DNA of 64,000 nucleotides from Clostridia bacterium. GTDB lineage: Bacteria; Bacillota; Clostridia; Oscillospirales; CAG-272. The notes beneath the pieces were generated by a model that was not told the DNA's origin, made no database searches, and saw nothing but the letters and a program-made list of their open reading frames with translations. A program made the translations under genes and the position numbers. Every line of letters begins with the position of its first letter. The first letter of the stretch is position 1. The stretch lies in the NCBI GenBank assembly GCA_017455185.1, contig JAFTBN010000075.1, forward strand, positions 11,545 to 75,544. The letters are read 5' to 3'. This document shows, piece by piece, positions 16,852 to 46,641 of this stretch.

Positions 16852-16890
16852 ATTATAAACTACAAAAAAGCGGTTTTGGTATCCCATTTC
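16852..16890 (-). promoter_or_regulatory. Late promoter copy 1 (conserved box + 12 nt + TATAAT)
   Basis: Minus strand reads GAAATGGGATACCAAAACCGC (16890-16870), 12 nt, then TATAAT (16857-16852). A-tracts lie upstream and the SD lies ~25 nt downstream. Confidence 0.7.
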
Positions 16891-16932
16891 GCGGTTTTCG
16901 AAGATTTTTTGAGAAAATTTTGAGTAATTTTT

Positions 16933-17685
16933 TTACCAGTCAACGATGGTGGCCAGAGCTTTGAGTGTATTCGCATATACAGCAGGCAAAGACCCTTGGT
17001 TGTCAGAAAATTTAAAATACAAATTTTGAAGTTGGGTATAAGAAAAAGATCCGTAATTTTGAACTCCCATAATATTGAGAACATTGTTAATAGATCTATA
17101 CCCAATTCTCCAGGTACCGCCGTAAGCCGTATAAGGAGACCCAATATAAGGCGTTACGTTCCAGCTGTACCGTGAATAATTTCCATCTGCATAGGCTCCA
17201 CTTAAAGGAGTAACGCCATCCGTGTCATAGAGTGTGCCTGATACAGCCACGTTGGTTGAAGAATAAGGAAAGCTGCTCCAAGGAATATTGTAAGAGGCTA
17301 CGCTGGCGCTGGGTTTAAACTTCCATTTCGTTCCTGCGTACGTTACGCCGTCCCACACTTTTGTCTTGCACCGGGCTGAAACCACAACGTCCTCAGTCGG
17401 GTTGGAAAGCGTAAGCGTATTGGTCGCGCTATCAAAGGTATATTCCGCTCCGGTCACCGAAAGGATCTGTGCCAGCTCGTACGGAGCCGTCGGGACAATG
17501 GTAATCTCCACTGTTTCCTTTTCCTGGATCACGCCCGGACCAGTATACGTTCCATTCTGGATTTCGCATGTTATGGGAAAGGTAGCGGTTAGTAGCGAGG
17601 CACCTGCGAGGAAAGCCTGCGTCGCCTTTCCGCCATTGAAGAAAAACGCGGTCGGCTTTCCCCCGATAAGAAAGAAATCAGCCAT
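16933..17685 (-). CDS. Tail-fibre-associated protein sharing an Ig-like module with the 802-aa fibre
   Basis: 250 aa. Residues ~30-105 (ATFPITCEIQNG...LSVTGAEYTFDSATNTLTLSNPTEDVVVSARC) parallel the fibre segment ATFIITNGSHNG...AVSGADYTYNNETGVVTISNPTGNVTVSATC. Confidence 0.6.
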   Translation of the reverse strand: MADFFLIGGKPTAFFFNGGKATQAFLAGASLLTATFPITCEIQNGTYTGPGVIQEKETVEITIVPTAPYELAQILSVTGAEYTFDSATNTLTLSNPTEDVVVSARCKTKVWDGVTYAGTKWKFKPSASVASYNIPWSSFPYSSTNVAVSGTLYDTDGVTPLSGAYADGNYSRYSWNVTPYIGSPYTAYGGTWRIGYRSINNVLNIMGVQNYGSFSYTQLQNLYFKFSDNQGSLPAVYANTLKALATIVDW

Positions 17686-17706
17686 ATTCTGAACTCCTCT
17701 ATAAAG

Positions 17707-17745
17707 ATTATATTACATAAGAAAGCGGTTTTGGTATCCCATTTC
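17707..17745 (-). promoter_or_regulatory. Late promoter copy 2
   Basis: The same 21-nt box (17745-17725), 12 nt, then TATAAT (17712-17707). The SD (AGAGGAG) and ATG of the 16933-17685 gene follow directly. Confidence 0.7.
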
Positions 17746-17857
17746 AATTTTAGTTAAACAGATACTATTCAATTTAAGTTACTGAATTTAATATAGTATT
17801 TGCTATGCTAAAAAATGTGTACTATTGCGTTTGTAGAAAAAACGAAAATATCTTTCT

Positions 17858-18523
17858 TTACTCCTTGACAACCGGATGCCGATGGCACCAATCCGACCAG
17901 GCGCGCCGTTTGAATTTGGCTTTCATGAGAGCAGAATCTTCATCCGTTCCGTTCTCACATCCGTGGGCCTGCAGATACGCATCCAGCCTCATGTCCGGTT
18001 CTTCCTTAAGGAATTGCAACAGAACAGGCAGATAGCTGTCCCGGAAAATGAAATCGCCTTCCGTGTTAATCGGCTCGGAGTAATCGAAATACTTGTACGT
18101 TCCGTCTTTGGCAATTCCGATCTGGAAGCGGTCCTTCGGCTTCCATTCCAGGATCTCCGCGATATTATACGGGATATTGTTCGCCAGCACGTTGTGGATG
18201 CACTGCTCGCACATACCGTCGCAGGAGCACGGCACCCTGGTCAACTCTGCGTGGTCATACAAGTCGCAATAGATGCCGTCTCTTGCATAGTCGATGAAAA
18301 ACTCGGATTTATCCTCTACATACTCCATATAGAGGAAATCGTTGCTCTCGTCATAACGGACAATATCCGCAAGATATTTAAATTTGCCGGAATTGTAACG
18401 GTCTCTTTCCGAACGGCTTTGCAAGATTCCATTTCGGTTCACCGGAATTTTCAGCACCGTTCCGTCTTCCATCAGGCAGGAGACTCTTCCTCTGCCATGC
18501 CCCAGATATTTCTTTATCTTCAT
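17858..18523 (-). CDS. Hypothetical protein with a protein-kinase-like motif arrangement
   Basis: 221 aa: LGHGRGRV (Gly-rich loop), VLKIP (VAIK-like Lys), FLYMEYVED (hinge), KDRFQIGIAKDGTYKYFDYS (catalytic-loop/DFG-like). A Cys-rich insert is present. Pattern-level call only. Confidence 0.35.
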   Translation of the reverse strand: MKIKKYLGHGRGRVSCLMEDGTVLKIPVNRNGILQSRSERDRYNSGKFKYLADIVRYDESNDFLYMEYVEDKSEFFIDYARDGIYCDLYDHAELTRVPCSCDGMCEQCIHNVLANNIPYNIAEILEWKPKDRFQIGIAKDGTYKYFDYSEPINTEGDFIFRDSYLPVLLQFLKEEPDMRLDAYLQAHGCENGTDEDSALMKAKFKRRAWSDWCHRHPVVKE

Positions 18524-18535
18524 ATTTGCCTCCCA

Positions 18536-20944: not shown

Positions 20945-20956
20945 GTTCTGTTCCTC

Positions 20957-24226: not shown

Positions 24227-24228
24227 GC

Positions 24229-25158: not shown

Positions 25159-25182
25159 GGCTGAAGTCCTTTTGTTTGTGGA

Positions 25183-26226: not shown

Positions 26227-26240
26227 TTCGCGTTACCTCC

Positions 26241-27706: not shown

Positions 27707-27883
27707 TCATTTAACGGTTTGCACGGACCATAGTTTGCCGCATCGTTTGCATTTGAAGGTCAGACCCTTGACTTCGGAATCCCGGAGCAGCCCAACAAAC
27801 CGCACCTTTTCTCCGCACCTCGGGCAGGCCAAACGGGTAATGTCTCCCCGTTCTGTTTCTAAAATTCGCAAAGCCATTTTCAT
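27707..27883 (-). CDS. Small zinc-ribbon protein
   Basis: CPRCGEKV...CKRCGKLW. The track start (27931) lies inside the promoter; ATG 27883 or 27877 next to GAGGTG is preferred. Confidence 0.6.
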   Translation of the reverse strand: MKMALRILETERGDITRLACPRCGEKVRFVGLLRDSEVKGLTFKCKRCGKLWSVQTVK

Positions 27884-27895
27884 CACCTCGTCTAT

Positions 27896-27934
27896 ATTAT
27901 AAACTACAAAAAAGCGGTTTTGGTATCCCATTTC
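27896..27934 (-). promoter_or_regulatory. Late promoter copy 3 (head-gene unit)
   Basis: The same 21-nt box (27934-27914), 12 nt, then TATAAT (27901-27896). A ~47-bp stretch is identical to copy 1. Confidence 0.7.
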
Positions 27935-27952: not shown

Positions 27953-30900
27953 TTACGATTTTTTTCGCAAAATTCTGTTGCCCTTGACCGTGAATCCGCA
28001 CCGCTCCGCGATGGCTGCTTTCTCTGCCTGCGTGACCGGCAGAGACATGATGTATTTCAGCAGCATGGTCGTCGCGCTTTCCTCGCTGACCGGGAGCCCG
28101 GAGAGCGTGTAACCCTTGACGGCCATCACGTACACCGCCTCCTGTTTGCTCAGTCCGCTGGTGGTCAGATACTTGTACACATTCTTTTTCTTGGTGCCCG
28201 AAATGGCATTGCCCTTCTTGTCCTTGTCCGTCCCGATCTCGTTCAGCCCGGCCAGGACGGTCGCAAACTTTCCGATGTCTTTCCGGAAGAAGGTCAGAAG
28301 CGTGTTGTTGGTGGTCTTTGTCTTCGTCACCTCGTCCTTTGCCATCATAAAATACGCCGTGTTGACCGACTTGATGGCTTTGGCCTGGTCTTCCTCACTC
28401 AGCTTCTTGAATACACGGTCGTTCAGCATGCTCTCGATCACCGGGTTCGCCTTGGAATAGAGATACTTGAACTGCTTCTTCTGGTTGGCCGTGAGCTTGT
28501 AGGATTCTGTCTTCGTCTCTCCGTTCGCGTCCGTGTACGTGTACGACAGCGTGTTTCCGACCGCCTTGGGAAGGACGTCATAGCCCTGCGTGTAGAGATT
28601 CAGCAGGACGTCGCGCGCTTCCTTGCTCATCGTTCCCGTGTTGTCTTTCGTATACAGCTTGAGCAGATACTCGGCCATATCCGTGTTTCCGTGATTCATA
28701 TACTCCGAAAGGTCGGTCCGGTAGTCCGTCGCATAGAAGAACGAGTCCACCGCATAGCCGGCTTCGGGCGCGAACCGCCTCATCATGCCGGTTACCGTGT
28801 TCATGATGTTCCGCACCGGGATTCCGGTCAGCTCTCCGGCCGTGTAGACCGAGCGCCGCAGAACGGATCCGAATTCGTACCGCTCCACCGGCTGGCCGGA
28901 TGCGGCCTTGCCGATCAGCGACACTATGTTCTTGGAATCCATGAGGAAGTCGTTCACGGTATCGTACACAAATCCGGATACGCCGTAGCCCTTGGTGAAG
29001 TAACTGGCGATCTGGTTCATGCCGGGCATCATTCCGATGGTCGTTACGGCAATGTCGGTCAGGTAATCCTCGGCAAAGGAAATCTCGTTCCCTTCCTCGT
29101 CTTCCCTGCGCTTCTTCTTGAACAACCAGGAAATGAATTGCCCGATCATACAGTACATGGCGTTCGCAATCAGGATGGCCGAAATGGCCCTTCCCAGCTT
29201 CTTGGCGGCGTCTGCCTTCGCTTTAGCATTCTTGGTCTGCACCGCATACGAAAGCTCGCCTGCGGCTTCCACAAGCCGGGAATACTGCTTCAGCGGCGCC
29301 GACGTGAACATGGAGAACACCTTGGCCGCTTCGTGCGTGGAGCGCATCATCGCGGACCGTTCCGTGTTGGAATAGTTCGGCTGTGTCTGCCGGATCACCT
29401 GCTCGAGCAGTTTTCCTGCTTCCTTCATGTTTTCTTCGGTTCCGAACACATAGCCCTTCTCTTCCTGCACCTGCGCCTGGCTGGCATTCCACAGGACGCC
29501 GATGGTCAGACGGTCTGTCCATTGAATCGGCTTGGTTGTCGCGTCCCCGATCTTGCCCACTTTGTCAATCACGCCTTCCGCCTTCACCACCACCTGGTCA
29601 TGGTTCCGGGTGAATGCATACGGGCAGTATTTGTCCATTGCCTTGAAATCGATCTTGCGGAAGAATCCGCGAAGCATAGCCTTCGGGCTCAGAACAATGG
29701 CAGCGGTCGGGAAGGATGCGGTCTGCGACAGAATCACCTTCAGGTTGGCGCCCAGCTGATACTTGGCATATCCTCCGCGGAGCGCCCCGAAGAGGTTGAA
29801 ATCCTCGTTCGGCATGACGACGCCCTGGATGTCGGAGAACAGTTTCTGCAGGTAGGCCGAAGCGCCTTTCCAGATGTTTTCGTCCACAAACTTGCGCACC
29901 GTCCGGACGTCGGTCTTTTCCCCGATGTTCTTGTTGTACACCCGGTCGAAGGTCTGCATAGGCTGTGCCAGGTTCGCGTAGACGGACATCTGCTTTGCAT
30001 GCGTCTGCACCATATCGTACACGTTCCCAATGTGCAGCTCGGTAGCCGCCTTCGGCTTCGTATCCTTGTTGAAGGAGAAGTTATTCAGTGCGGCCACATC
30101 CTTCAGGAAGGAGCGCACGTCCATGGTGGACCGTGCGATCGTCGTCCGGTCGCGGACAATCGGGAAATAGAATTCATCCAGAACGTTGGTGTATCCGAGG
30201 AAATTCAGATCGGCTTCGGTCTTCGCGTTTTTGGACTCCACGTTGAAGAAATTCTCCACCAGTTTGATGAATTCCTTGTCTTCCTTGGTCAGGCTCGATT
30301 CAATCGTCTTCCGGAACCATACGGCGTTGTCCTCATAATCCTCGTCCGTCAGGTTGGTCTCCATCGTGCCTTTTACGTGGTGCGTGTTGCCGTCCTTGTC
30401 CTCGTAGGAGAATCCGGAGCAGGCAAGGCCCTTCTGCGCCTGTGCGCGCTTGGTGGTCTCATACAGGGCAATGGCCTGATTCAGCGTCAGGGTCTCGCCA
30501 TGGAAGTCAATGGTCGCGCTTGCAAGCCGCTTCTGATACCCTTTGTTCTTCTTGAAGAATTCCTCGAACGGAAGCATGAACTGCACGCGCTGGTATTCCG
30601 CCGCGGTTTCGCCCTGCAGGATTTCGTTGTACATCCTGGTCAGGAACCCTTTCGGGTCATAACGTTCCAGCATCCGGATGACCACGCGAGGCTCTACCGT
30701 GTAATTGAACCACTTCTGGATAGTTTGCGTGAGCTTGACGAAATGCTTGATCTTCTTGAATTCCTTGGACATCAGGAATTTCATCTCGTCCTCGGCCAGC
30801 TGCCTGGTTGTGTAGCGCTTCCCTTCCAGGAAGGCCGCGTCGTAGTTACGGAACAGCGCTTCCGCGGAACCGAGAATCACCTCCGCCGCCTTCAGCTCCT

Positions 30901-33900: not shown

Positions 33901-36900
33901 CAGGATCTACCGGAGCCAAAGAATACCTTCCGTCTTCTGCAACAATAGGAGTCTTTGGCATTTCATCCCGAATATGATTGATTGCGTCCACCATCTCAGC
34001 AAGCATGCCGGTCGAAGAATCATCCGCCAGGTCGGCCGAAAGATTATCCAGCGTTTCCAACTCCTTGCGCATCATCCGCTCAATGTATGTCCCTGTGTCC
34101 ACCTGCTCGACTTGACCATCCTGCCCAATAACCGGAACCGTTTCTGGGATCACCAGCTGCACCTTTTTGTGCGGAGCATAGTGCCCTTCGCTGTCATAGA
34201 GCGAGAAATCGGCAAGCAGTTTGTAATAATTCGGATGGTTTGAGAAAGCCGCGTAAGCAACAGTCCAGCCTTTTTCCGCGAGCTCTGCCTTGTACATATC
34301 TGCGGCAAGCTTGGGGATGTCATCATACTTATAGGTCTTCCCGTTGAATTCGGTTGTTTCCTTTTTGTGTGTCTCCGTGCTTGCATTGTACCCGAATTTC
34401 TTTTCCGCGGAAGCAAGATACTTTCCGAAGGTAATGTGCTTTGTTTCTCCGCTTGCATCTTTCGCCTCGTTTAATCCACGGTAATTCTTCGCAAATCTCG
34501 CGCCCGGATACCGCTTCTCCGGATTCTCCGTATTATCATGGAATCCGATGATCAACTGCACCCGCGGATCATCCAGCAGTTTTTCGATATGCTTATCCGA
34601 GTACCCGATGCAGATGGTCCCCACGCTCTTGGAATACAGTTTGTCCATGGCAATCATGAACGCCTCGTCCGGGTTGATTCCTTCCACCGTATCAAACAGA
34701 AGTTCGCCGTTCTCCCCGAGCCCGGCATTTTCCAACGTCCTGGCATAATCAATCTCCCCGTCCGCCGTGCGGTATACATGCACCTTCGGGATCAGGGATG
34801 CATTGATTTTTGCACCGCTCAGACCGAGGATCTTCAGCTCCGCCGGAACCTTGGTGTAGGCGTGAATGTAGTAACCTTTAGCCGCCGCGTCCGCATACAT
34901 CTGGACCATATCCATAAGCAGATACATCTGCAGGTCACTGTTGGACTGGTTCCGGATACCTCCGGCATTCCGCACGGTTCCGGCTTTGAATCCTTTGGTC
35001 AGAATGTCTCCCAGATAGATTACAGGTCTTTGCTTGCTCTTGTACCCACTGACGCCTCCCTGACGATTGAACAGCGAGTACAGCATAGGATGTACACCGG
35101 CAACGTTCTGTGTCACATAGGACGAATACAGCATGTCGCTGTCAATGTATTTGCGCGATTTCGGCTCAAAGGCAAGCGCTTTCAAAAGGGCCAGATTGGT
35201 CGGAACGTTTCCTTTCAGGGATGCGGAAAAGGCCTGCGGCGTTGCCTCCTTGATCAAAGGACGCACCGTCTTGCTGCTCTTGTTGCTTTTCTCAATCTCC
35301 CGGTTTGTGATTTCCATCAGGGCTTCATAGAATGCATTTGACTGCTCTGCGCTCATCTCTACCGGTTTCAGATTGTATTTGTCGGTAGTGATATCCCGGC
35401 CGAATTTGCCGAACGTCATCTCTACGCCCTTCTCTGCCATCTTCCGGGAAATCTCGTCCAATGTGGAATTCCATCCGATTTTGGCGCCGTCTCCGTTCAG
35501 GAATTTTTTAATGATAGCTCCTTCCCGTTGCCGCGCCTGCTCTACATAGCAAATGGCGCAAGGAATTTCATACCCGTGCGTTTTCAGAATCCTGTACAGT
35601 GCTTCCTTTTCCTGCTTCCCGATGACGTCGGTCTTCATCTGCGTTTTGAGTTCTTTGCGTACGATTGCGTCAATGGCCTCAAACAGCGGAACACCCTTTT
35701 TGCACATGGTGGAAAGCTCGATGTTGTACTTGTATCCGCTTTGTTCCTTAAAGACCGAGAAGTTCCCGTCCCGGCCTTTTTTCTCGTTCCATTCCTTGAG
35801 GAATTTGGAATCCATAATCGCCGTTACATCCCGCCAGATCTTCGTAAACCGATCCAGCGCGGCATTAATGCCTTCCTTGCTCTGCATGGCGGACTTTTCG
35901 TCATAATTCTTGTCGATATCCTGACGATGCTTTTGGTCATATTGAAAATTGTTCCGCCCCGTTTCTCCGTACATCGCTTGTCTGCGATTCAATGCCATCT
36001 CAAAGGCATTGCTTCCCTGATTGTACGCAGACAGCCGCTGGAACGCCTGCTTGAATGCATACGCATAGGCTTCTGCAGCAGTTTTCGCCTGAGTAAAACC
36101 GAGCTTGTTGCCAAGTCTGCGCAAGAATGACAGGATCCTCGACTTCAGCGTCGCATCCTCCTGCAGGATTTCCGTCCATAGATCGTCATTCATCCCGAGT
36201 TCGCCGGCATACGCTGCCTGAATCTCGTCTTGAATGATGGCCTCGAGTTCATCGCCACTCTTTTTTGAGTCTTTATAATAGTCCGTATACAGCTCACGGA
36301 TTGCGTTTACGCGTTCTTCCCCGAGCGCCTTCTCCGCGAGCTCTACCATCATAGACTTGCCTTTGGAGGAAAGATGGTTGTATACCCAGTGCCCCGTTTC
36401 ATGCGCAAGCGTAGTGAGCAATCCTTCAGAAACACTTGCGGAAGGATTAACGTACACCGTATTGTGCATGTTGTACCGCCCGGTCGAAATGATTATGTGG
36501 CCGTCCTTGTCTCTTTTATTTGCCGTCAGAATCTTGCGACTGAATACAATGTTCAAACCGGTTTTAGCCGAAACCTTTGCAAAAATGGCAGTCTTGTCCG
36601 GGCTGACATTGTTTTCCAATGCCTGCATAACGGTCCTACGCACGCTGCGCTTGACCGATTCGCTGAGTTTGTCATAATTCGGAACGTATTCCCTGGCCTT
36701 CTGTTCTGCCTCTTCCCGAACCGTGTTCTGCCTCTGCTCTTCTGCGCGGAGGCTTTCGTTCGTCTTTTCCCGAAGCAGCTGATTGACTTCCTTCGACGTC
36801 ATGACGCGCGTAACGGACCCAGATTCCTTGTTCACGATGCGGTACTGGTTGCCCTGTTTTACGACAATGTACCCGTCCCCGATGTCATAAGCGCCGTCTT

Positions 36901-38488
36901 TGTTGGTTCCGAATGCCTTGGGTGCCGGCTTGACTTCGCCCTGCGCGGCCTGCTTTGCGCTCTGTGCGCTCTGCATAGCGGACATGACTTTGTCATGATT
37001 CCGGGCAAACGCTTCGCTGACTTCCACCGAGGATGCTTTCTTCCAGTTATCCACGCCGATCAGTCTGCCGATTTCCTCTTTTTGCTGTTCGGATGCGGTT
37101 TCAACAAACTGCTGCAGTTCGTCCGCCGTGATATCGCCGGGATGCTCAGCGGCAAACTGCACCCATGCGTCCGTCTGCATGGTGAGTTTCCCGGTAAAGG
37201 ACAAAATCGCCAGGCCCTGGAGGACGTGGTTATGCATGAGAGCGCTGCGGACCTGCTGGACGTACGGCTTGCCGGAGTCGGCCATAGCCGTTACGCCTTT
37301 GCGGATATCGTCTGCCGTAATCGTGATCTTGTTTCCCTTGTCATCCGTCAGGAAGGAGGAAATCTGCTGTGCAATCGCTTCCGGATTCTGCAGAATGTTG
37401 ATGGCCTCGCGCTGAAGCAGCGGATTGACCAGCGCTCCCACGTTAATCTGCATCAGATTTCCAAGAAGCATCTTCTGCCTGGGAGTCGTAACCACGTTCC
37501 CATTCTTCGCAATGGATTCCTTCAGCTGGTTATAAGTGTCCTGCAGAGTGTCAACGACTTCCTTGCTGACGCCGACCTGCTCTTGATTCTCCAGGATGCT
37601 CCGGGCGGTCTCAAGAATCGAGTTTACACTTCCGTTCTTGACGGCCTGGCTTCCAAAATACACGCTTCGCGCGGAAGAAATCTGGCTTCCTGTCGCGCCC
37701 ATCATGACACCGGAAAGACCGCCTACCAGCGCCTGATAGCCTACGTCCTTCCAGTCAACCTTCGCTTCGGGATCTACGCCTGTCAGCCTTCCCCACGCAG
37801 GTTCCAGAAGAGCGGATACGCCCTCTTCGAATGCTTCTCCCAAAAAGTCTCCGCCAAGGCGCTTAACCACTGCCCATGCGGTAGACTTGGAGATGGCCTT
37901 TGTTGCGTCATTTGCAAACTGCTTGGATACAGTGGACAAAACCCGACCGGAACCCCAGCCGGCAAAATCGCCCAGCATTTCCGTCCCGGCTTCCGTCAGA
38001 CCGGACAGATAACCATAGCCCATTTCTTTCCAGCCCAGTTCTCCGGTTTTCTTCACTGCCTCGCTTACGCCGGAGCCATATGCGGAGACCCCGAGTGCGG
38101 TCAGGGAGGCGGCCTGAATAGCCGCCTGTGACACTCCGCCTACCGCGTTTCCGATTCCGCCGGTCGCCCAAGCAACCACGAGAGAAGGCAAAGAGTTTCC
38201 AATGCCTGACGCCACATCTCCGGCAATCTTCCAGCCTTTGGAAGGGTTGAATTCCCTTGTGGCCTTCTCGTAATCGAACCAGTCGGTCGTGAATTTACGT
38301 TCTGCGTAATTCAGCGCATCCTCGTTATTGAAGATCTTTCCGGCCAGGAAAGCAGGAAGGCCGGTAACAGCATCGGCCGCTCCTTCTATGGCACGGATAA
38401 AGCCGTTACCCAGCTGCTGGCCGAGATAATCGAGCCCGTACCCTACGTTATGTTCCCCTTCTTCAAGAGTGATATCTGTAAATTTCAT
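27953..38488 (-). CDS. Giant multidomain (polyvalent-type) virion protein, 3,511 aa
   Basis: Single uninterrupted ORF. Gly/Ala-rich hydrophobic N-terminus. HExxH metallopeptidase motif LAHETGHWVYNH (codons at 36389-36403). Class I SAM-methyltransferase motif I ILDASSGLGYG (33685-33717) with DVIISNAVLNVL and GGRIFVNV. Remaining regions are unassigned. It occupies the MuF/minor-head-protein slot after the portal. Confidence 0.85.
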   Translation of the reverse strand: MKFTDITLEEGEHNVGYGLDYLGQQLGNGFIRAIEGAADAVTGLPAFLAGKIFNNEDALNYAERKFTTDWFDYEKATREFNPSKGWKIAGDVASGIGNSLPSLVVAWATGGIGNAVGGVSQAAIQAASLTALGVSAYGSGVSEAVKKTGELGWKEMGYGYLSGLTEAGTEMLGDFAGWGSGRVLSTVSKQFANDATKAISKSTAWAVVKRLGGDFLGEAFEEGVSALLEPAWGRLTGVDPEAKVDWKDVGYQALVGGLSGVMMGATGSQISSARSVYFGSQAVKNGSVNSILETARSILENQEQVGVSKEVVDTLQDTYNQLKESIAKNGNVVTTPRQKMLLGNLMQINVGALVNPLLQREAINILQNPEAIAQQISSFLTDDKGNKITITADDIRKGVTAMADSGKPYVQQVRSALMHNHVLQGLAILSFTGKLTMQTDAWVQFAAEHPGDITADELQQFVETASEQQKEEIGRLIGVDNWKKASSVEVSEAFARNHDKVMSAMQSAQSAKQAAQGEVKPAPKAFGTNKDGAYDIGDGYIVVKQGNQYRIVNKESGSVTRVMTSKEVNQLLREKTNESLRAEEQRQNTVREEAEQKAREYVPNYDKLSESVKRSVRRTVMQALENNVSPDKTAIFAKVSAKTGLNIVFSRKILTANKRDKDGHIIISTGRYNMHNTVYVNPSASVSEGLLTTLAHETGHWVYNHLSSKGKSMMVELAEKALGEERVNAIRELYTDYYKDSKKSGDELEAIIQDEIQAAYAGELGMNDDLWTEILQEDATLKSRILSFLRRLGNKLGFTQAKTAAEAYAYAFKQAFQRLSAYNQGSNAFEMALNRRQAMYGETGRNNFQYDQKHRQDIDKNYDEKSAMQSKEGINAALDRFTKIWRDVTAIMDSKFLKEWNEKKGRDGNFSVFKEQSGYKYNIELSTMCKKGVPLFEAIDAIVRKELKTQMKTDVIGKQEKEALYRILKTHGYEIPCAICYVEQARQREGAIIKKFLNGDGAKIGWNSTLDEISRKMAEKGVEMTFGKFGRDITTDKYNLKPVEMSAEQSNAFYEALMEITNREIEKSNKSSKTVRPLIKEATPQAFSASLKGNVPTNLALLKALAFEPKSRKYIDSDMLYSSYVTQNVAGVHPMLYSLFNRQGGVSGYKSKQRPVIYLGDILTKGFKAGTVRNAGGIRNQSNSDLQMYLLMDMVQMYADAAAKGYYIHAYTKVPAELKILGLSGAKINASLIPKVHVYRTADGEIDYARTLENAGLGENGELLFDTVEGINPDEAFMIAMDKLYSKSVGTICIGYSDKHIEKLLDDPRVQLIIGFHDNTENPEKRYPGARFAKNYRGLNEAKDASGETKHITFGKYLASAEKKFGYNASTETHKKETTEFNGKTYKYDDIPKLAADMYKAELAEKGWTVAYAAFSNHPNYYKLLADFSLYDSEGHYAPHKKVQLVIPETVPVIGQDGQVEQVDTGTYIERMMRKELETLDNLSADLADDSSTGMLAEMVDAINHIRDEMPKTPIVAEDGRYSLAPVDPVVPTGGWKRSQTFEEVKEQHPDLWDVSADESSEKNPTSVKVTVASYDKIYSFLKDEGFEGKILDASSGLGYGTELGKDKYGFDVEDVEPYPGERHEPDYRDYTKISGQYDVIISNAVLNVLPQDLRDSLVARMGELLAPGGRIFVNVRGEDVMNASSKVILDKDNLEVFISGSGSYQKGFKKSELVAYLKDALGEGYDVEAVTFFGKTSAVVTKSANDDIRYSLPDYIDDLAVKKFGTTDDIKKAAYIIKDGKMLDFSSVMTKGMNPNRPDMWHDSIILAVKDKPSFTERSDATHAYINQGNIRVNFNGSKNMPSIIDMPSFEAVDSLTDDQMETIRDALSQISGKLTIAFDDDSRTNYRYDGNFDSVLDDIRNYYRSNGKQLSDVAMFHEEGRYSLIGYDADDIEVYETSQTILNLPQKQRIAKYLDYLKNDYVGRTAKFVRNGHTYYATMDKTSIRKPVFGDDNSSKAGKKALVKVGADGNIFELIENSKYQSSSPNHKKHTPADYFDYFVKQVWIDNKLFDVLANVEKKYNDKDGYVYTFSLQENKNSAQHNTHPTVVKIAVPRTNSGNSIAQNDDLSTPIEEKNENSSSEEGRNSLSDGYEFKRYTKKEAEEIVNRIMENIEYTESERSYFEDEWDSNIFKPKLIGKSRKQAINQIFEMLNSAPAGERFNPALRIADYLIDNVIMHEIVVGTDASAVAAQFIDAMNQYRHGIHITDQIKSEAKYVFDDKANEIWMQWAAPKGTRGMDPDVIAMEMRSQGIYLGDVDVDAPAQQIFHQLLQHYDHCKSMLDEKAAKIKLREFGSEQALKDYRQGIAKDLLRAYDEFGTISKEGKAVERVRGQYERKLGEQRKGYEKRIDALKGVFEEQKQKLLDKLKNSYKKNQVENRVVDLARKLKDGAIRKYVSSTVLSNPILEKWEKELGKLVLRGNLRKANSRNILLTYEKFYNAKNQPLMDWLAETSEDGKGELDPNVLGAFEVIKNAKKETASGVPLPLSYEELKAAEVILGSAEALFRNYDAAFLEGKRYTTRQLAEDEMKFLMSKEFKKIKHFVKLTQTIQKWFNYTVEPRVVIRMLERYDPKGFLTRMYNEILQGETAAEYQRVQFMLPFEEFFKKNKGYQKRLASATIDFHGETLTLNQAIALYETTKRAQAQKGLACSGFSYEDKDGNTHHVKGTMETNLTDEDYEDNAVWFRKTIESSLTKEDKEFIKLVENFFNVESKNAKTEADLNFLGYTNVLDEFYFPIVRDRTTIARSTMDVRSFLKDVAALNNFSFNKDTKPKAATELHIGNVYDMVQTHAKQMSVYANLAQPMQTFDRVYNKNIGEKTDVRTVRKFVDENIWKGASAYLQKLFSDIQGVVMPNEDFNLFGALRGGYAKYQLGANLKVILSQTASFPTAAIVLSPKAMLRGFFRKIDFKAMDKYCPYAFTRNHDQVVVKAEGVIDKVGKIGDATTKPIQWTDRLTIGVLWNASQAQVQEEKGYVFGTEENMKEAGKLLEQVIRQTQPNYSNTERSAMMRSTHEAAKVFSMFTSAPLKQYSRLVEAAGELSYAVQTKNAKAKADAAKKLGRAISAILIANAMYCMIGQFISWLFKKKRREDEEGNEISFAEDYLTDIAVTTIGMMPGMNQIASYFTKGYGVSGFVYDTVNDFLMDSKNIVSLIGKAASGQPVERYEFGSVLRRSVYTAGELTGIPVRNIMNTVTGMMRRFAPEAGYAVDSFFYATDYRTDLSEYMNHGNTDMAEYLLKLYTKDNTGTMSKEARDVLLNLYTQGYDVLPKAVGNTLSYTYTDANGETKTESYKLTANQKKQFKYLYSKANPVIESMLNDRVFKKLSEEDQAKAIKSVNTAYFMMAKDEVTKTKTTNNTLLTFFRKDIGKFATVLAGLNEIGTDKDKKGNAISGTKKKNVYKYLTTSGLSKQEAVYVMAVKGYTLSGLPVSEESATTMLLKYIMSLPVTQAEKAAIAERCGFTVKGNRILRKKS

Positions 38489-38502
38489 ATGCACCTCTTT
38501 TT

Positions 38503-40800: not shown

Positions 40801-42745
40801 TTGCGTTTCCTCCTCTCAAGGTATCCTGCACGTACTGCTCGTAAGCCTTGCGGCTGTTGACCTCGTCCTGCAGGCCTGCGATCTGATTCTGCAGCTGCGC
40901 CATCTCGTTCAGGCGTGCGATCTCGGTCCGGATGCGCTCCACGTTGTCGCGTGCGTACGGATAGTGCGCTTTTTCCATATTTTGCCAGTATATGAGCTTT
41001 GTCTGCGGCAGAGCCGGGTCTCCGTAAGCACCAGCCTGGAAGTTTTCCTTGTTCTGCTGCCAGAGCCATGCACGGTCCAGTTCTTCCTCGGGGTTGCTGG
41101 AGCACGAGAACGTGTAGTCGTCCGCATAGTAATACTCGCCGTTTTCGTCTCGCTCGATGAAATCGTAGCGGTTGAAGATGCAGTTTTGCAGATTGCCTTC
41201 CGCGTCCCGGTAGGCCGCCGGTCTCGGTTCGTCAGCGTAAGCGAGATAATACTGAAAGATGATGCGGTCTATCTCCGAATACGCGAAATTCTTCATGACG
41301 CGCTTGGACTGCAAACGCCCGGAAGACTGCTGAACCTGGACCTGCTTGGCAACACCGGACTGCGCCGTGCTGTCCGAGAGGCCTCTGTAGCTGTCCGTGA
41401 TGCCGAGGATCCGCTTTGCGTGCTCATACACGCGCTCGGACTGCTCCACGTCCTGCCCGATCTGGGCCTGCAGGTCCAGCTTGGCAAACAGGTTGAAATT
41501 GTTTGGCCGTGCCCGGAAGACCCTCTCATACAGGCTGTCATCCAGCTGGTCGACGAAATCGTCCGGCACGATTGGGAACACGCCCGATTTGAGAATCTTT
41601 TCCAGGATCCTGGACTCGATCTTGTTGATCTCCTGCTGCTGGTCCCGGATGTATTCGCAGTCACTCTGCCCCAGCAAGGACTCTTCCTGGCTGGTGTTCT
41701 TGCGGATGACGACCGGGAACGCGGTAATCTGATACCACGGAATGCGCGTCGGCTCGGTCTTGGGAACCTCGACGTCTACCATCATAGGCAGGGCTACGCC
41801 GTTGATCAGGTCAATGGCGGTAGAACCGTCCGGATTGGTCACCGGCGCCTGCTGGGTCTCCATCACCACCTGCCCGTTCTCAATCACCGGAGACAGGCGA
41901 GGCAGCACGGACCCGTCCGCCCGGACGATATCGTGGTCCAGCTCCTCGAATTCTTCATCTTGCACCTCGAAATAAGGCATTTCGCACGTGCACAGGCGCT
42001 CCGGCCTTCCACATTTGACGCACACCTTCTTTTTGCGGTTGTAATAGTCTTCTATCCACTGGATTTCCTGATCGCCGGACCAGATGTACTGGCAGACCTT
42101 GTCCTTGTCGTCCTTGTAATAGCACACGTACAGGGTCGCGGTCTTGTCGTCCGTGCTGTCTTCGCTCTCCAGATCGTCCAGGATGGACACGTCCACGTCA
42201 TACTTGCGCAGGATGTCTTCCTTCGTGGTCTCGAAGAGGATAAACAGGTACTCCATGTCTTCGATGGCGTAGATGTTCGGCTGGCCAACGAACCGATGCG
42301 GCGGCAGGCAGCTGACGCGCACGTCTCCGCTGGTGTTGTGCGTCGTGATGGTCTCATCCCATTCCACAAGCCAAACGGACCCTCCGTAGATCGGGTTGTA
42401 CCGCTCGTCTATATCGTTGAGCGATTCAAACGGCAACCGGTCCCGGTTGGTGTTGAGCATGGTCTCAATGGCCTTGGCGTTGCGCAGATTGCGTTCTGAC
42501 ACCATCTTGGGCTCTACCTTAGGCGACGGGATATACGTTGAGATCTGCGCCTCCACGAACTCGTACGTGATGTTGCGGACCACTTTTGCATCCACAGACG
42601 ACCCGTCTATCTGCTTGGAGCCCTTGTACTGCTCCATCCACTTCTGCAGGGCCAGCCGTGAATTTTCAGACTGCCCCAATGCTTCCTGGTACAGGTCCTG
42701 AAAAAACCGTACCCGTTCTTCCTTGCCGTTTCCTTCTATCTTCAT
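40793..42745 (-). CDS. Portal protein
   Basis: 650 aa, directly downstream of TerL (ATGA overlap). The N-terminal region is typical of portals (QKWMEQYKG...RNITYEFVEAQISTYIP). A CxxC...CxC insert is present. Confidence 0.8.
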   Translation of the reverse strand: MKIEGNGKEERVRFFQDLYQEALGQSENSRLALQKWMEQYKGSKQIDGSSVDAKVVRNITYEFVEAQISTYIPSPKVEPKMVSERNLRNAKAIETMLNTNRDRLPFESLNDIDERYNPIYGGSVWLVEWDETITTHNTSGDVRVSCLPPHRFVGQPNIYAIEDMEYLFILFETTKEDILRKYDVDVSILDDLESEDSTDDKTATLYVCYYKDDKDKVCQYIWSGDQEIQWIEDYYNRKKKVCVKCGRPERLCTCEMPYFEVQDEEFEELDHDIVRADGSVLPRLSPVIENGQVVMETQQAPVTNPDGSTAIDLINGVALPMMVDVEVPKTEPTRIPWYQITAFPVVIRKNTSQEESLLGQSDCEYIRDQQQEINKIESRILEKILKSGVFPIVPDDFVDQLDDSLYERVFRARPNNFNLFAKLDLQAQIGQDVEQSERVYEHAKRILGITDSYRGLSDSTAQSGVAKQVQVQQSSGRLQSKRVMKNFAYSEIDRIIFQYYLAYADEPRPAAYRDAEGNLQNCIFNRYDFIERDENGEYYYADDYTFSCSSNPEEELDRAWLWQQNKENFQAGAYGDPALPQTKLIYWQNMEKAHYPYARDNVERIRTEIARLNEMAQLQNQIAGLQDEVNSRKAYEQYVQDTLRGGNANA

Positions 42746-43011
42746 GCCGGCAATCCTCCCATTATCTTGATAATTGCCTCTCGCTCTGTGTTACTCCGCG
42801 CGTTGCGGTAGTCCTCCAGGCGATCCGGGCTGTAATGTACATATTTAACGGTCTGCTCTTTGGCAGGCGTTATCCAGTAAATGCAGAAATACCGTAAACT
42901 ATCACAATTATGGACAATCACTCCACTATTTACAGAAAAACAGTGCGTGCTATCCACATATAAGTCATATACTTTCTGCTTGTTCCCTCTCCTTATATGG
43001 GTGATATGCAC
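42742..43011 (-). CDS. terL: TerL fragment 4: split-intein C-half (35 aa) fused to the TerL C-terminal 54 aa
   Basis: GTG at 43011 lies 8 nt after AAGGAGG. The piece ends ...VYDLYVDSTHCFSVNSGVIVHN, then Cys+1 (42906-42904), then DSLRYFCIYW (nuclease Asp motif). It ends in an ATGA overlap with the portal start. Confidence 0.8.
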   Translation of the reverse strand: MHITHIRRGNKQKVYDLYVDSTHCFSVNSGVIVHNCDSLRYFCIYWITPAKEQTVKYVHYSPDRLEDYRNARSNTEREAIIKIMGGLPA

Positions 43012-43546
43012 AAGACCTACCTCCTTTTTGTCTGCTTCTGAATGCGCCTTTACAATTATTGCTACAGAATTTGCTCCTTAAAGCACACATTTTTGGCGTT
43101 TCGTACTCTCTTCCACACATAAGACACACCTTTTTGACTTTTGTCTCTATCGACGGAAGAATTGACGAATTCCAGTGTTCTTTATGCCACACTCTGCCTT
43201 TTGTGCCTTTATGCCATTCAATTGCTTTTGGTCTTGCTTTCTCATTCATGTTTTTTCTTGCTCTTTCTTTTGCGACTTGCGATGAAGAATGAAGTGATAA
43301 ATGACCATAACCGTTTATCATTTGCAGATTGTCTATGCTATTGTTTGCTTTATTTCCATCCTTGTGATGAATGTGATATCCTTTCGGCACGACACCATTG
43401 TGCTTTTCCCACACATAAATATGCAATCGCTTGATTTTCTTTTTCCCAACACTTCCTGCATAGTAACCTTGCTTAGTTGGATAAAAACGAAACCCATCCA
43501 CTATGATTGCCTTTGAGTCTTTACTTGGTTTCCTTCCGCCTGGCAT
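42965..43546 (-). CDS. Free-standing HNH homing endonuclease between the split-intein halves
   Basis: ATG at 43546 lies 7 nt after GAGGAGG. HNH motif HIHHKDGNKANNSIDNLQMI plus a C-terminal CxxC..CxxxC cluster. It is in a different frame from both TerL halves and overlaps each by ~46 nt. Confidence 0.85.
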   Translation of the reverse strand: MPGGRKPSKDSKAIIVDGFRFYPTKQGYYAGSVGKKKIKRLHIYVWEKHNGVVPKGYHIHHKDGNKANNSIDNLQMINGYGHLSLHSSSQVAKERARKNMNEKARPKAIEWHKGTKGRVWHKEHWNSSILPSIETKVKKVCLMCGREYETPKMCALRSKFCSNNCKGAFRSRQKGGRSCAYHPYKEREQAESI

Positions 43547-44661
43547 ATATCGTCCTCCTCTGTAAGTATTCCTGCGGGTATCCATCCCCTGTTGCTTGTT
43601 AGTACAAGATGATCTGGCGTGCATTCCAACTCGGTTCCATCATCGAATGTAAGGATAATCGTCTCCTTTTCTCCCATACAAACGCAAGCCTGGTAATCTT
43701 GCTCTTCACCAAGCAAAGATATCAATTTGCCACTTGTGCCTTCCAAGTCTTCTATCCTTGCCTGCGTGCCATCGGCCATGTTGACGAGCGTATTACCCGC
43801 GAGACACGCATGCGTTATCTCATGCGGATCCAGCGAGCAGTCGTTCGGCCGTTTCGGGTCCCGTAGGATCTCGATCATGCATTTGATAAGCTCTTTGCAG
43901 GTGTTGAATATCCGCAGCTTCGGGATCCCGTGCTCATCCGGCCGGAGCATCTCCTTGATGGCAAGCCATCCGGCCTCCCGGTCGTTGCTCGCTTTGGTCA
44001 GCTCCAGGCCTGCCTCATAAAAAAGCTCGGCCTTGCTCTTGCCGGTCTCCTGGCTTCTGCTCCACAGATCCGGCGGAGCGAGCACAGCGTATATATCATC
44101 GCCGGCAGACCACTCGTTGATTTTCTCGGCCGCTTTGCTGATAATTAGGTTACTTTCGCAATACTCCTTGTAGCAGTACACGTACCCTTCCCGGTCTATC
44201 GCGTACCAGTAAGCAGCGAGCCGGTCGAGGCCGTAGTCAATCGAGATATACCGCCTCCAGGACGAATCAAGCGGGCAAGGCTGGATGACATGCACCCGGC
44301 GGTCAAAATCGTCAAACATCTGACCCTCGGCCACATCCCACGAGCCATAGCGCCATCTCTTGCGCATGTCCTCCGGCAATGAATCCAGCTGCGCCACGTA
44401 GTCCGGGTTTGCCTCCATCAGAACCTGGTTATCCGTAACCAAAGACTGGATAAACAGGTAATCGTCCGGGTTCTCTCCGTCTGTGTAGTCCCGAGAGACA
44501 AACAGGCGCTTGACCCAAGCGAAGCCCACGCCGTCCGGGTTGCATGTCAGATAGATCCGTTTCGGGCGATTGTTCGCGCCACGAAGGCAGGCCTTGAGGA
44601 CGTTGAAAACGCTCTCCATAAATTGCGTCGCTTCTTCCAAAAAAATTACATCGTACTCTTG
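43501..44661 (-). CDS. terL: TerL exon 3: Walker B and nuclease domain (285 aa) fused to the split-intein N-half (101 aa)
   Basis: QEYDVIFLEEATQF (Walker B), ISIDYG, DPHEITHA, then CLAGNTLVNMADG...TPDHLVL (Hint blocks A/B) from codon 43806. The frame stops at 43503-43501. Confidence 0.85.
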   Translation of the reverse strand, partial: QEYDVIFLEEATQFMESVFNVLKACLRGANNRPKRIYLTCNPDGVGFAWVKRLFVSRDYTDGENPDDYLFIQSLVTDNQVLMEANPDYVAQLDSLPEDMRKRWRYGSWDVAEGQMFDDFDRRVHVIQPCPLDSSWRRYISIDYGLDRLAAYWYAIDREGYVYCYKEYCESNLIISKAAEKINEWSAGDDIYAVLAPPDLWSRSQETGKSKAELFYEAGLELTKASNDREAGWLAIKEMLRPDEHGIPKLRIFNTCKELIKCMIEILRDPKRPNDCSLDPHEITHACLAGNTLVNMADGTQARIEDLEGTSGKLISLLGEEQDYQACVCMGEKETIILTFDDGTELECTPDHLVLTSNRGWIPAGILTEEDDICQAEGNQVKTQRQS

Positions 44662-45428
44662 CAATCGTGTTATCCGGCAGGCTTTTTATCTTGCCGTTCT
44701 TGCGATTTCTCGCAAGTTCAGCATATCTTTTCATCCCTTACGGGAGCCGTGGCCTCGTGGACGGGTTATATCTTTTCACCGTCTATGCGTTGCGGCTGGC
44801 AACAGTAACTGCTGCCTTCACCTCTGATTGCCTTGCTTTTTGCATATAAGAGACGTTTTCGCGTAACGGGATCCACCTGCAATTGTCCGGCGAATAGTCC
44901 AGATCCGGGTTAATCCTGTCAATTGACATGCAATCACCTTTTGTTTGCCCGTTTTGGGGCTCTACATATCCGTGACTGTACGACCATTCCCGGAAGGCCT
45001 CGTAATCCTGCCATTCCTGGCAAAGCTTGACGCCTTTTCCGCCGTAATACTTGTATGTATGCACATTTGGGTTGTTGCATCTCTGCTTTATTCCAATCCA
45101 AATGTTGTAAAGCCTTTCCTTGTCGGAATGCCCGTGCGTCAGATGGCTGTTTACGCCTGCTTCACGCCGAAAGCATCCGCAAGACTTGGTCACACCCTTT
45201 CTCAGGTTTCCGGCTTCTGCGACCGTGACACAGCCGCAATCGCATGCACATCTGTAATACAAGTGTGATTTTCGCGTGTGATCATACGCAATAACAGTCA
45301 GTCTTCCGTATTTTTTCCCGATTTCGTCTCTCATATGTACCCTCCTTTGGGTATTTTGCAAAAAGTTTAGGTTTCCAGGTTTTTTCCACGGTTTTCGATG
45401 GCCGTTACCGGCCAAAGGGGCAAGATTC
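44662..45428 (-). mobile_element. Group I intron 2 in terL (767 nt) carrying a homing-endonuclease-like ORF
   Basis: Exon 2 ends ..CAGGGU. The intron ends ..ACGAUUG (terminal G). It has a GCCCC guide-like element and shares conserved blocks and a 3' hairpin with intron 1. Confidence 0.75.
44783..45334 (-). CDS. Intron-encoded homing-endonuclease-like protein
   Basis: ATG at 45334 follows AAGGAGGG. KKYGRLTVIAY...CACDCG...SCGC, WQDYEAFREW and SIDRINPDLDYSPDNCRWI are typical of phage intron/free-standing endonuclease-like proteins. Confidence 0.65.
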   Translation of the reverse strand: MRDEIGKKYGRLTVIAYDHTRKSHLYYRCACDCGCVTVAEAGNLRKGVTKSCGCFRREAGVNSHLTHGHSDKERLYNIWIGIKQRCNNPNVHTYKYYGGKGVKLCQEWQDYEAFREWSYSHGYVEPQNGQTKGDCMSIDRINPDLDYSPDNCRWIPLRENVSYMQKARQSEVKAAVTVASRNA

Positions 45429-45677
45429 ACCCTGGTACTGTAGCGCGTCCGCGTCTGATTGGAAGTACGAGCACTTTAGCGTTGACCCATTCACGAACTG
45501 AAACGTGCGGTCCATCTCTTTCCATCGCGCGATCTCCGGCGGAATTTCGGCCCGGAGCGGCATGATATGGTTGTCTTTTAAATCGACGAAGGTCTTCCGA
45601 ATGATCAGCATCTTGATTCCGGGCCACTTGATGGCCAGCCTTTTTGCCTTTTCCCGGACTGCCCAGCTCTTTCCACC
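45429..45677 (-). CDS. terL: TerL exon 2 (83 aa)
   Basis: GGKSWAVREKAKRLAIKWPGIKMLIIRKT...SDADALQYQG. It supplies the GKS of Walker A and ends at the conserved YQG. Confidence 0.8.
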
Positions 45678-45975
45678 CATTATTGTTACCGCAGAGGCTT
45701 TTTATCCTCTGCTTCACGGCCTTTCGCGCCGTGGTCAGCGTACATTTTCCGCATTCGCGGTCGGGCACTCTTGGCAGGGTTATATTTATTCACCTGCTAC
45801 GCGTTACGGAGATCAGCAGCCTTTCGCAATCTGCTGATTTTCCTCGGTGTTGCCATGATATCGATTCAGATTCGCTCTCGTCGAATTCGTCTTTTACTTC
45901 CATCTCCATGCCTCCTTGCACGTTTCGATATTTTAGGTTTTCACCGATTTTGCCCGATTAAGAGGCAGTGTGTTT
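45678..45975 (-). mobile_element. Group I intron 1 in terL (298 nt, ORF-less), inserted inside the Walker A loop
   Basis: Exon 1 ends AGAGGU. The intron begins AAACACACUGCCUCU, where GCCUCU can pair with AGAGGU (P1 with a G.U pair at the splice site). The intron ends AAUAAUG. It is homologous to intron 2. Confidence 0.75.
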
Positions 45976-46071
45976 ACCTCTCGCGCCGCCAAAGGCCACA
46001 TATTTAGCGGTCGCCGTCATAAACTCCCTTTGTTTGGGCTGTGGCCGGCCCAGCTTAAACGTAACCGTCAT
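45976..46071 (-). CDS. terL: TerL exon 1 (32 aa)
   Basis: ATG at 46071 overlaps the terS stop (ATGA) and follows GAGGAG. MTVTFKLGRPQPKQREFMTATAKYVAFGGARG supplies the first half of Walker A. Confidence 0.7.
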
Positions 46072-46580
46072 ACTGACTCCTCGTCCACCTCGGCCTGATT
46101 CTCGGTCTCGATCCGGACAGTCAGCACGTTGTCATCCGGCGCCTTTTCCCGGAGCCCGTACTTGGCCGAAAGCAGAAACTTCCCAAAATTGGCGTTGTGG
46201 ACGCCGTCGTTCGAAGCGTCAATCAGGTTCTGCTGATCATACCGGTCTACTATGTCCCAGACAGCCTTCCATTCCGGATAGCGCAGCTTTCCGTCCGGAT
46301 CCACGGCACAGGCCCAGTATTCCAAAGTGCTGATCACCACGCCAATTCTCCGGGCAAAGCCCACCTTGGATGGCAGAGGCCGGGTCATCCGGTACTTCTT
46401 CCCGGACGCGTCCTCATATTCGTCATACATGGGCTCGTTGTAGTAATCGAGGAGCATTCTGGCATACTCGGGCTGATACTTGCTCTCGTGCAAATACACG
46501 CTGTATTTGTGGCCATCTGCGAACGTTCCGTTCGGATTTTTCCCGTCCCATTTCTCTTTTGGGCTGTATTTTTTTGCCAT
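46068..46580 (-). CDS. terS: Terminase small subunit
   Basis: 170 aa, first gene of the late arm, translationally coupled to terL. The motif FGKFLLSAKYGLREK is typical of TerS C-terminal parts. The call rests on position plus this pattern. Confidence 0.65.
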   Translation of the reverse strand: MAKKYSPKEKWDGKNPNGTFADGHKYSVYLHESKYQPEYARMLLDYYNEPMYDEYEDASGKKYRMTRPLPSKVGFARRIGVVISTLEYWACAVDPDGKLRYPEWKAVWDIVDRYDQQNLIDASNDGVHNANFGKFLLSAKYGLREKAPDDNVLTVRIETENQAEVDEESV

Positions 46581-46602
46581 TATTTTTCACCTCCTTGCCT
46601 CA

Positions 46603-46641
46603 ATTATACAGAATAAAAAAGCGGTTTTGGTATCCCATTTC
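46603..46641 (-). promoter_or_regulatory. Late promoter copy 4 (packaging unit)
   Basis: The same 21-nt box (46641-46621), 12 nt, then TATAAT (46608-46603), immediately upstream of the terS SD. Confidence 0.7.

Follow-up and report, generated by a model that had tools for sequence, protein, structure and literature searches.

Four copies of an invariant box mark probable activator-dependent late promoters in a Clostridia prophage

What reads four identical boxes that stand before the late genes of a clostridial prophage? The window analyzed here is a 64,000-nt stretch of contig JAFTBN010000075.1 (assembly GCA_017455185.1), from a metagenome-assembled genome (MAG) named 'Clostridia bacterium' with locus tags IJU20_. 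It contains a temperate prophage of ~46 kb, and on the minus strand of this element a 21-nt sequence recurs upstream of four gene units, each time followed by 12 nt and then TATAAT. A sequence-only reading of the window had proposed a phage-specific late promoter that is used with an activator or an alternative sigma factor. Sequence and comparative evidence support this proposal best, as an inference, and the two regulators that had been put forward fare unequally. The four sites are probably activator-dependent late promoters for virion genes. We consider it likely that they are temperate-phage late promoters needing an activator and that the activator is, as the best candidate, a 158-aa protein whose gene ends the early operon.

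The 21-mer (GAAATGGGATACCAAAACCGC) has exactly four perfect matches in the window, all on the minus strand, and each is followed by 12 nt and TATAAT at precisely the coordinates first proposed. None of 100 shuffles preserving dinucleotide content contained a match, and thus no copies are expected by chance. No further matches were present in the window at up to three mismatches, and raising the limit to six added only one unrelated match on the plus strand, so there are no degenerate copies of the box. The length of 21 nt originally given to the conserved box is indeed invariant, but the invariance extends through a following TTT and the block is really 24 nt long.

Box copy 4 (46621-46641, minus strand) is located upstream of the terminase small subunit gene (terS), ~125 nt inside the likely right attachment site (attR). 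Its TATAAT (46603-46608) is preceded by TG, forming an extended -10, and is followed 6 nt later by AAGGAGG and by the terS ATG at 46580. Copy 3 (27914-27934, minus strand) lies in a 75-nt gap between a 3511-aa gene and the zinc-ribbon/scaffold/capsid unit, with TATAAT at 27896-27901 and the ATG of the zinc-ribbon gene at 27877. Copy 2 (17725-17745, minus strand) occupies a 172-nt gap upstream of a 250-aa gene, with TATAAT at 17707-17712 and the ATG at 17685, and copy 1 (16870-16890, minus strand) a gap of 119 nt before the terminal unit, which encodes small and membrane proteins; here TATAAT (16852-16857) precedes GGAGGTG and a TTG start codon (16813). A 47-bp stretch (CCGCGAAATGGG...TATAATATAG) is the same in copies 1 and 3, and both have phased A-tracts upstream, as had been noticed from the sequence. 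All four boxes are intergenic and oriented in the sense of the genes; three of the six late-arm gaps longer than 70 nt contain one, in addition to the region before terS. The Shine-Dalgarno sequences are not 8-25 nt downstream as earlier stated, but instead follow TATAAT by ~6 nt in copies 2-4 and by ~27 nt in copy 1. Across the copies the box is 40-77 nt upstream of the start codon.

The hexamer at a 17-nt spacing from TATAAT is ACCAAA, which agrees with only two of the six positions of the -35 consensus and is therefore non-canonical, as originally described. For this reason a sigma-70 consensus scan is silent on the four sites; the same scan gave no convincing promoter on the rest of the late strand. 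Seven TATAAT hexamers are present on the late strand of the prophage, four of them linked to a box. If TATAAT is counted as -12 to -7, the box plus TTT spans approximately -45 to -22. The box is asymmetric and occurs singly at each promoter; it is not palindromic and contains no significant inverted repeat. AAAACCGC recurs 21 nt upstream in copy 1 only, and copy 3 has a near-repeat, AAAGCCGC, so that the direct repeats that typify Ltr promoters (see below) are not found at the set.

The genes assigned downstream of the boxes hold up reasonably by PHROG match or context. The gene after copy 4 is the terminase small subunit (phrog_3064, E 4.9e-10); copy 3 heads a 56-aa zinc-ribbon gene followed by scaffold-like and major head genes; the 250-aa gene after copy 2 stands downstream of an 802-aa tail-fibre gene; and copy 1 heads a block of small and membrane proteins. 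The late arm as a whole occupies 46641 to 13581 on the minus strand. Its first part encodes terS, HNH proteins, pieces of the terminase large subunit (terL), the portal, and 752-aa and 3511-aa proteins; zinc-ribbon, scaffold-like, major head, adaptor-like and 1092-aa proteins occupy the middle; and the 802-aa tail fibre and the 221-aa and 250-aa proteins precede the block of small and membrane proteins at the end.

Related phages, which the sequence-only reading had named as a place to look for the motif, do carry it. Fifteen instances were collected, representing 13 distinct contexts and five kinds of relatives (contigs and loci are given L numbers below). The box matches at 21/21 positions in all 15 and is then followed by TTT, and TATAAT comes after exactly 12 nt wherever the relative's contig is long enough to show it. 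The copy 3 box is present in a near-identical IMG/VR contig, L001. Homologues of the 250-aa protein that are 50-61% identical were traced to ten metagenome contigs, and box copy 2 is kept at 21/21 in L020 and L023-L028; box copy 1 is kept in L023, L029 and L030. The remaining spacer and both flanks diverge among the instances, to the extent that the 45 nt upstream of copy 2 cannot be aligned between the window and L023. Because the box, the spacing and TATAAT are fixed while the spacer, the flanks and the neighbouring protein diverge, the pattern indicates purifying selection on box, -10 and spacing.

Pattern scans delimit this group of relatives. An exact scan for GGGATACCAAAACC-N14-TATAAT gave no match in the GTDB species genomes, and in the Joint Genome Institute (JGI) metagenomes it gave one real relative (L020) and one chance match; the tighter GGGATACCAAAACCGC-N12-TATAAT returned one near-identical contig from IMG/VR. 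A looser pattern built on the 5' half of the box, AAANNGNATACCA-N19-TATAAT, matched 113 IMG/VR loci, which is the chance level. None of the 80 of these 113 loci that were listed had more than one match, and only L167 encodes a relative of any window protein (major capsid, 30% identity). L002-L019, with capsid proteins 59-67% identical to that of the window, have no box or obvious equivalent repeat within the stretches fetched.

Several other identities for the box were evaluated. Folding of 71-nt windows on either strand, compared with shuffled sequence, gave z values of -0.95 to +1.24 at the four copies, none of them significant. The claim that no hairpin can be drawn must be qualified, since a weak one is drawable in copies 1 and 3; copies 2 and 4 do not share it, and shuffled sequence folds no worse. 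An Rfam search found no family at the four box sites. That the box is not an intrinsic terminator, as the sequence-only reading held, agrees with the lack of a shared structure and with a terminator scan that reports none of the four copies. Frames and lengths of the small open reading frames (ORFs) that include the box differ between copies, and a sigma-54 promoter is rejected by a GG-to-GC spacing of 12-13 nt, not 11, by inspection. A lambda Q-type antitermination site was likewise rejected: the Shine-Dalgarno sequence comes 6-27 nt after TATAAT, with no leader and no terminator for it in the window.

Which protein would read the box? The candidate we favour is the 158-aa protein (13033-13509, plus strand), the last gene product of the early arm, which had been called ArpU-like. 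It contains an N-terminal CxxC...CxxC zinc ribbon and a helical C-terminal domain with a likely helix-turn-helix. With the protein as query, neither Pfam nor PHROG gave a match at the thresholds applied, and the sole NCBIfam match, NF045770, is non-significant (E 0.13). The ArpU model TIGR01637 did not match it at E values up to 1, and three of 75 family members reach E ~0.02 with that model. When the profile of the 158-aa family was compared with Listeria phage A118 gp66, which we take to be an ArpU-type protein from its position, only the C-termini aligned, over 56 columns, at E 0.005 and a probability of 7%. An exhaustive HMMER search yielded 114 homologues, mostly ~110 aa in length and covering only the C-terminal helical domain; 38 of 75 homologues tested match phrog_11237, a family with no assigned function. 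No homologue of the 158-aa protein was found by tblastn in GenBank phages, single-query searches of IMG/VR with terS and with the 158-aa protein gave no match, and neither did the family alignment against the species genomes.

Homologues are encoded at 34 IMG/VR loci, and in 29 of these the homologue is followed on the same strand by the motif ATAAAT[TG]G.GAC. AAAT within this motif starts 31 nt before a TGnTAnnAT -10 that has no -35; the corresponding distance in the window, from the start of AAAT to TATAAT, is 32 nt. Downstream of the distant promoter are a leader and then a homologue of the window terS (23-29% identity, E down to 3e-15). No repeated TATAAT-anchored promoters were found in the 34 distant loci, and these phages therefore seem to use a single promoter before terS. 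When the window was scored with a weight matrix from the distant promoters, only copy 2 ranked high, at third of 255,760 positions. The zinc ribbon (window 13033-13180) is in many distant phages a separate small ORF ~180-250 nt upstream of the ~110-aa regulator gene (for example, L061 9655-9822), and it is fused in the window, L067 and L072; the window 158-aa protein is thus a fusion.

A further case is provided by L072, the 48-kb contig IMGVR_UViG_3300021387_000019, whose fused regulator is 41% identical to that of the window and whose arms also converge. The equivalent of promoter 1 reads AAAGTGAATACCA there and AAATGGGATACCA in the window, at the same offset from TATAATATAG. L072 keeps AAAnnGnATACCA at the same offset from TATAAT with 10 of 13 bases, and the 3' half of the box differs. 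The same locus contains two 74-nt copies of another element (16077-16150 and 16777-16850), 82% identical and including GCGGTGTAACGAA...GAAGAAACCGC, which stand before small late-strand genes and are distinct from the window box. A separate feature of the distant phages L038-L071 (e.g., L045 10474-10571) is a conserved hairpin with a U-run in the leader between promoter and terS, with compensatory changes in six base pairs, no Rfam family and no counterpart in the window. Its resemblance to a promoter-proximal terminator suggests attenuation or antitermination of the late genes in those phages.

The C-terminal domain of the 158-aa protein was modelled with a predicted local distance difference test (pLDDT) score of 94. 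A fold search of BFVD placed phage proteins named 'Transcriptional activator' or 'Transcriptional regulator' at the top (template modelling (TM) scores 0.64-0.72, probability 1.0), the best 'Transcriptional activator' match having TM 0.72 and E 2.8e-3, and Sigma70_r4 and DUF1492 proteins were lower in the list. Sequence and fold searches of the PDB gave nothing significant; chains of extracytoplasmic function (ECF) sigma factors and sigma region 4 recur at E ~5. By distant synteny and predicted fold, the sequence-only guess that this protein is the regulator is plausible as a late-activator assignment; its ArpU family label is not established.

These observations are consistent with the following sequence of events. 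Host polymerase with the primary sigma factor (sigma-A) would read the perfect TATAAT, and we propose that the box promoters are silent alone because they have no usable -35 hexamer. A phage protein bound to the box, at roughly -45 to -22, would recruit or stabilize polymerase and so replace the missing -35 contact. The likeliest box binder would be the 158-aa protein with its zinc ribbon and likely helix-turn-helix, whose gene closes an early operon under a repressor-controlled promoter. Since it comes last in that operon, the late genes would stay off until transcription has traversed the 11-kb early arm. The four promoters would then head a packaging unit (terS to the 3511-aa gene), a head/tail unit, the 250-aa gene and the terminal membrane-protein unit. 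Because no terminators lie between the units, the internal promoters probably supplement read-through instead of producing isolated transcripts. The anatomy of the sites, their position and their conservation are observed, whereas where transcription starts, that it depends on an activator and which protein activates it are inferred: the promoter assignment rests on anatomy and conservation, and the choice of regulator on distant synteny and modest structural similarity.

Several points weigh against activation by the 158-aa protein. Twenty-four invariant positions exceed what a single helix-turn-helix needs and are unusual for an activator site; we guess that zinc ribbon and helix-turn-helix may bind as two modules, or that two proteins may bind. 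A single asymmetric box per promoter matches neither the dyad of Mu C sites nor the direct repeats used by RinA and ArpU. The protein lacks a significant match in Pfam or the PDB, as in NCBIfam. The regulator is tied to the box only indirectly: the distant weight matrix fails to pick the four boxes as a set, and the similarity between the window and distant motifs needs an indel and was noticed post hoc. L072 is a single case for a link between regulator and box, which is a weak point. In the window the regulator gene adjoins no box and converges on the late arm, with terS 33 kb away. Finally, L022, with a regulator 97% identical to that of the window, and L034, whose DNA is 93% identical over a stretch encoding a homologue of the full 158 aa, are both too short to show whether boxes are present.

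The second regulator proposed from the sequence was a region-4-only sigma-like protein of 73 aa (13581-13802, minus strand), preceded by a strong Shine-Dalgarno sequence. Its sigma identity is genuine: Pfam Sigma70_r4_2 matches at E 2.1e-6 and 27.7 bits, above the gathering cut-off of 25.7, and the protein matches only positions 116-161 of a 165-position ECF model and, weakly, a SigF chain. It falls below the whole-protein cut-off of every sigma model, and region 2, which provides core binding and -10 recognition, is lacking. One could imagine that this protein reads the box of the late promoters, as a split or appropriated sigma factor or as a small helix-turn-helix activator, with host region 2 reading TATAAT and the 158-aa protein otherwise employed. 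Region 4 binds at the -35 position, on which the box is centred, and LtrA, of the sigma region 4 family, is among the known families of late activators (PMC3753634). The gene is also 96% conserved in relatives, always after the same membrane-protein gene. Yet it is the last gene of the unit headed by box 1, the last late unit, and therefore cannot start late transcription; with no separate promoter seen, it could at most reinforce it. None of the 34 distant phages with the related promoter type encodes a homologue within 10 kb of the regulator gene, and one helix-turn-helix cannot explain 24 invariant bases. Moreover, its start overlaps the preceding ORF, a 353-aa membrane protein with a low-complexity tail (13684-14745, minus strand), by 119 nt, and the MAG record annotates only 41 aa; either the true end of the 353-aa frame or the true start of the 73-aa frame is uncertain. 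On these grounds the 73-aa protein is a poor candidate for the primary activator, and its reading of the box in place of the 158-aa protein is unlikely.

It is quite unlikely that the box is instead a recombination cassette, in which box and A/T-rich flanks are homogenized by gene conversion and serve module exchange, any promoter role being secondary or absent. The 47-bp identity of copies 1 and 3 would suit such a cassette, as would the copy 1-type flank and box that L029 and L030 carry after a different gene, DUF6275, and the differences of whole modules beside conserved junctions between L022 or L034 and the window. Several metagenome contigs end at or beside a box (L028-L030) or begin just upstream of one (L026 and L027), which is expected for a multi-copy repeat. 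Gene conversion should leave ragged edges, however, whereas identity begins and ends abruptly, at the same bases in every copy, and the flanks are wholly different between copy types. TATAAT and its 12-nt spacing are kept despite the variable spacer, all copies point in the same direction just upstream of ribosome-binding sites, and 21 bases are short for homologous recombination.

We regard as very unlikely a hybrid enzyme, in which host region 2 would contact TATAAT and a phage region 4 module, the 73-aa protein alone or with the 158-aa protein, would contact the box. Such an enzyme, if it exists, would mean that a temperate phage of a Gram-positive host appropriates sigma by substituting one of its domains.

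An RNA operator would place the function of the box in read-through leaders, where a translational regulator such as a Com-like zinc-ribbon protein could bind it and so govern translation of the gene after each copy. The 56-aa protein encoded after copy 3 (27707-27877, minus strand) matches phrog_6417, 'translational regulator', at E 2e-5, and its two CxxC pairs may resemble those of the Mu Com protein. The position of every copy upstream of a start codon fits this arrangement, and without terminators between the units a read-through RNA would contain the box. Against it, no structure of the box is conserved or stable, an RNA role would leave unexplained why a perfect TATAAT keeps its distance over a variable spacer, and copy 4 follows a terminator and the att site, with nothing obvious to transcribe it. 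We judge this arrangement highly improbable. Least probable of all, to the point of being nearly negligible, is that the 24-nt block is the T7-style promoter of a phage-encoded RNA polymerase: exact identity over >20 nt does resemble promoters of single-subunit phage polymerases and the 3511-aa protein is similar in size to the N4 virion polymerase. In this giant protein, however, no polymerase domain and only one loose DxDxD-like string were found, and large genes are missing from the early arm. A host-type TATAAT, placed at promoter spacing, argues for the host enzyme, and a virion-carried polymerase is expected to read early rather than late genes. The proteins scanned, including the 3511-aa protein, gave no polymerase match in Pfam, PHROG or the PDB, a search that a very divergent enzyme could escape.

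The preferred assignment, late promoters activated by an early protein, is set in a prophage with the following layout. A tyrosine integrase (795-1835, minus strand) and a repressor with helix-turn-helix and S24 domains (1835-2494, minus strand) are followed by the divergent promoters of the lysis-lysogeny switch (2510-2606, both strands), TTGACA-17-TACAAT on the plus and TTGCCA-17-TACAAT on the minus strand, each with a preceding TG. In contrast to the box promoters, these score 10/12 and 11/12 to consensus. The early arm continues on the plus strand with Rad52-like, SSB, replisome-organiser, PcfK and PcfJ proteins and ends at 13509. A GC-rich hairpin of 15 pairs where early and late arms converge (13514-13547) is the predicted terminator for both arms. 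L022 and L034 have an extra module of six genes, ~2.7 kb, between nearly identical 158-aa and 73-aa genes; relative to window 13543-13580 this is an example of module insertion or loss where the arms converge. At the other end, an intrinsic terminator (46675-46694, minus strand; 8-bp stem, then T7) precedes box 4 and would shield the terS promoter from transcription crossing the att site; the terminator scan found none preceding copies 1-3. Two copies of a 16-bp direct repeat, ACCTTCCAGTTCTGAA, at 567-582 and 46766-46781 (plus strand) are candidate att cores. Arm-type repeats TGTACCCAC adjoin both, and the 16-bp repeats likely mark the att sites.

Some genes within the late units have unusual features of their own. 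The 3511-aa gene (27953-38488, minus strand), between the portal region and the head genes, has an AT-rich island at ~32-33.4 kb (GC 0.41) and a consensus-like promoter near 32150 on the opposite strand. The protein has a sub-threshold LPD3 (polyvalent protein) domain as its sole match in Pfam and no match to PDB sequences. The terL region (42742-45768, minus strand) appears invaded and fragmented. An ORF at 43501-44397 has terL family matches and ends in an N-terminal intein motif (ITHA/CLAGNTLV), another at 42742-43011 contains a C-terminal intein motif (VIVHN/C), and between these pieces an HNH endonuclease ORF (42965-43546) lies in another frame; a second HNH gene is found at 44783-45334. 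The fragmentation may reflect a working intein or else an assembly or frameshift problem. Outside the prophage, host DNA at 56865-56911 (minus strand) contains a DUF3800-XI RNA according to Rfam (51.4 bits, gathering cut-off 37.8).

If confirmed, the four sites would reveal how temperate phages of gut Clostridia, from a poorly known group that looks podovirus-like and carries the giant 3511-aa protein, switch on their late genes. A function would also be assigned to the unannotated family phrog_11237, with >100 homologues at 50% clustering. The 39-bp promoter and a small activator could form an orthogonal expression pair for use in Clostridia, and the invariant box would be a practical marker for related prophages and for annotating late operons. 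The general understanding of late-gene timing in phages would be unchanged.

How does the arrangement compare with known systems? Late promoters of P2 and P4 share a common upstream element and are activated by the small zinc-binding proteins Ogr and delta together with the host polymerase. Several late promoters, one conserved element and a small candidate activator of zinc type are likewise present here, a likeness for which homology is not claimed. The P2 element differs in its dyad symmetry and in lying upstream of the -35 region, with its centre near -55. T4 middle promoters, at which MotA binds a box at -30 and sigma is appropriated by AsiA, also combine a host-type -10 with a phage-specific box in place of the -35; the box of the window is longer and further upstream, and no MotA or AsiA homologues were detected. 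Mu possesses four promoters for its late genes, Plys, PI, PP and Pmom, with a -10 and no typical -35, at which a dimer of C binds over the -35 region to a 16-bp imperfect dyad centred at -43.5 and the host holoenzyme transcribes (PMC2582627). The window resembles Mu in its four probable late promoters, each with a perfect TATAAT, no usable -35 at 16-18 nt and a common site over the -35 region. Unlike the C site, the box is an invariant, asymmetric sequence of 21-24 nt without dyad symmetry for a dimeric activator, and the host is Gram-positive; the 158-aa protein gave no sequence or profile match to the Mor/C family.

The Ltr superfamily comprises RinA, ArpU, LtrA (Sigma70_r4), LtrB (DUF1492) and LtrC, late activators of Gram-positive phages that are encoded at the end of the early operon and switch on terS (PMC3753634). 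The 158-aa protein resembles them in being small, the product of the last gene in what appears to be an early operon under repressor control, and in its predicted C-terminal helix-turn-helix. It would similarly switch on terS and the morphogenesis genes, most of its distant homologues are encoded just upstream of a terS homologue, and sigma region 4 and DUF1492 proteins are among those with the most similar predicted fold. Known members differ in binding direct repeats at a single promoter before terS, where one asymmetric box is found here at four promoters. The regulator gene of the window also converges on the late arm rather than preceding terS, and the protein has an additional N-terminal zinc ribbon. 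Because the ArpU test failed and direct repeats are absent, no named family is assigned. By analogy, Mu is the closest system in logic and the Ltr superfamily the closest in biology. Taken together, we conclude that the boxes most likely belong to an activator-dependent phage late switch of a well-known kind, here with an uncharacterized candidate regulator.

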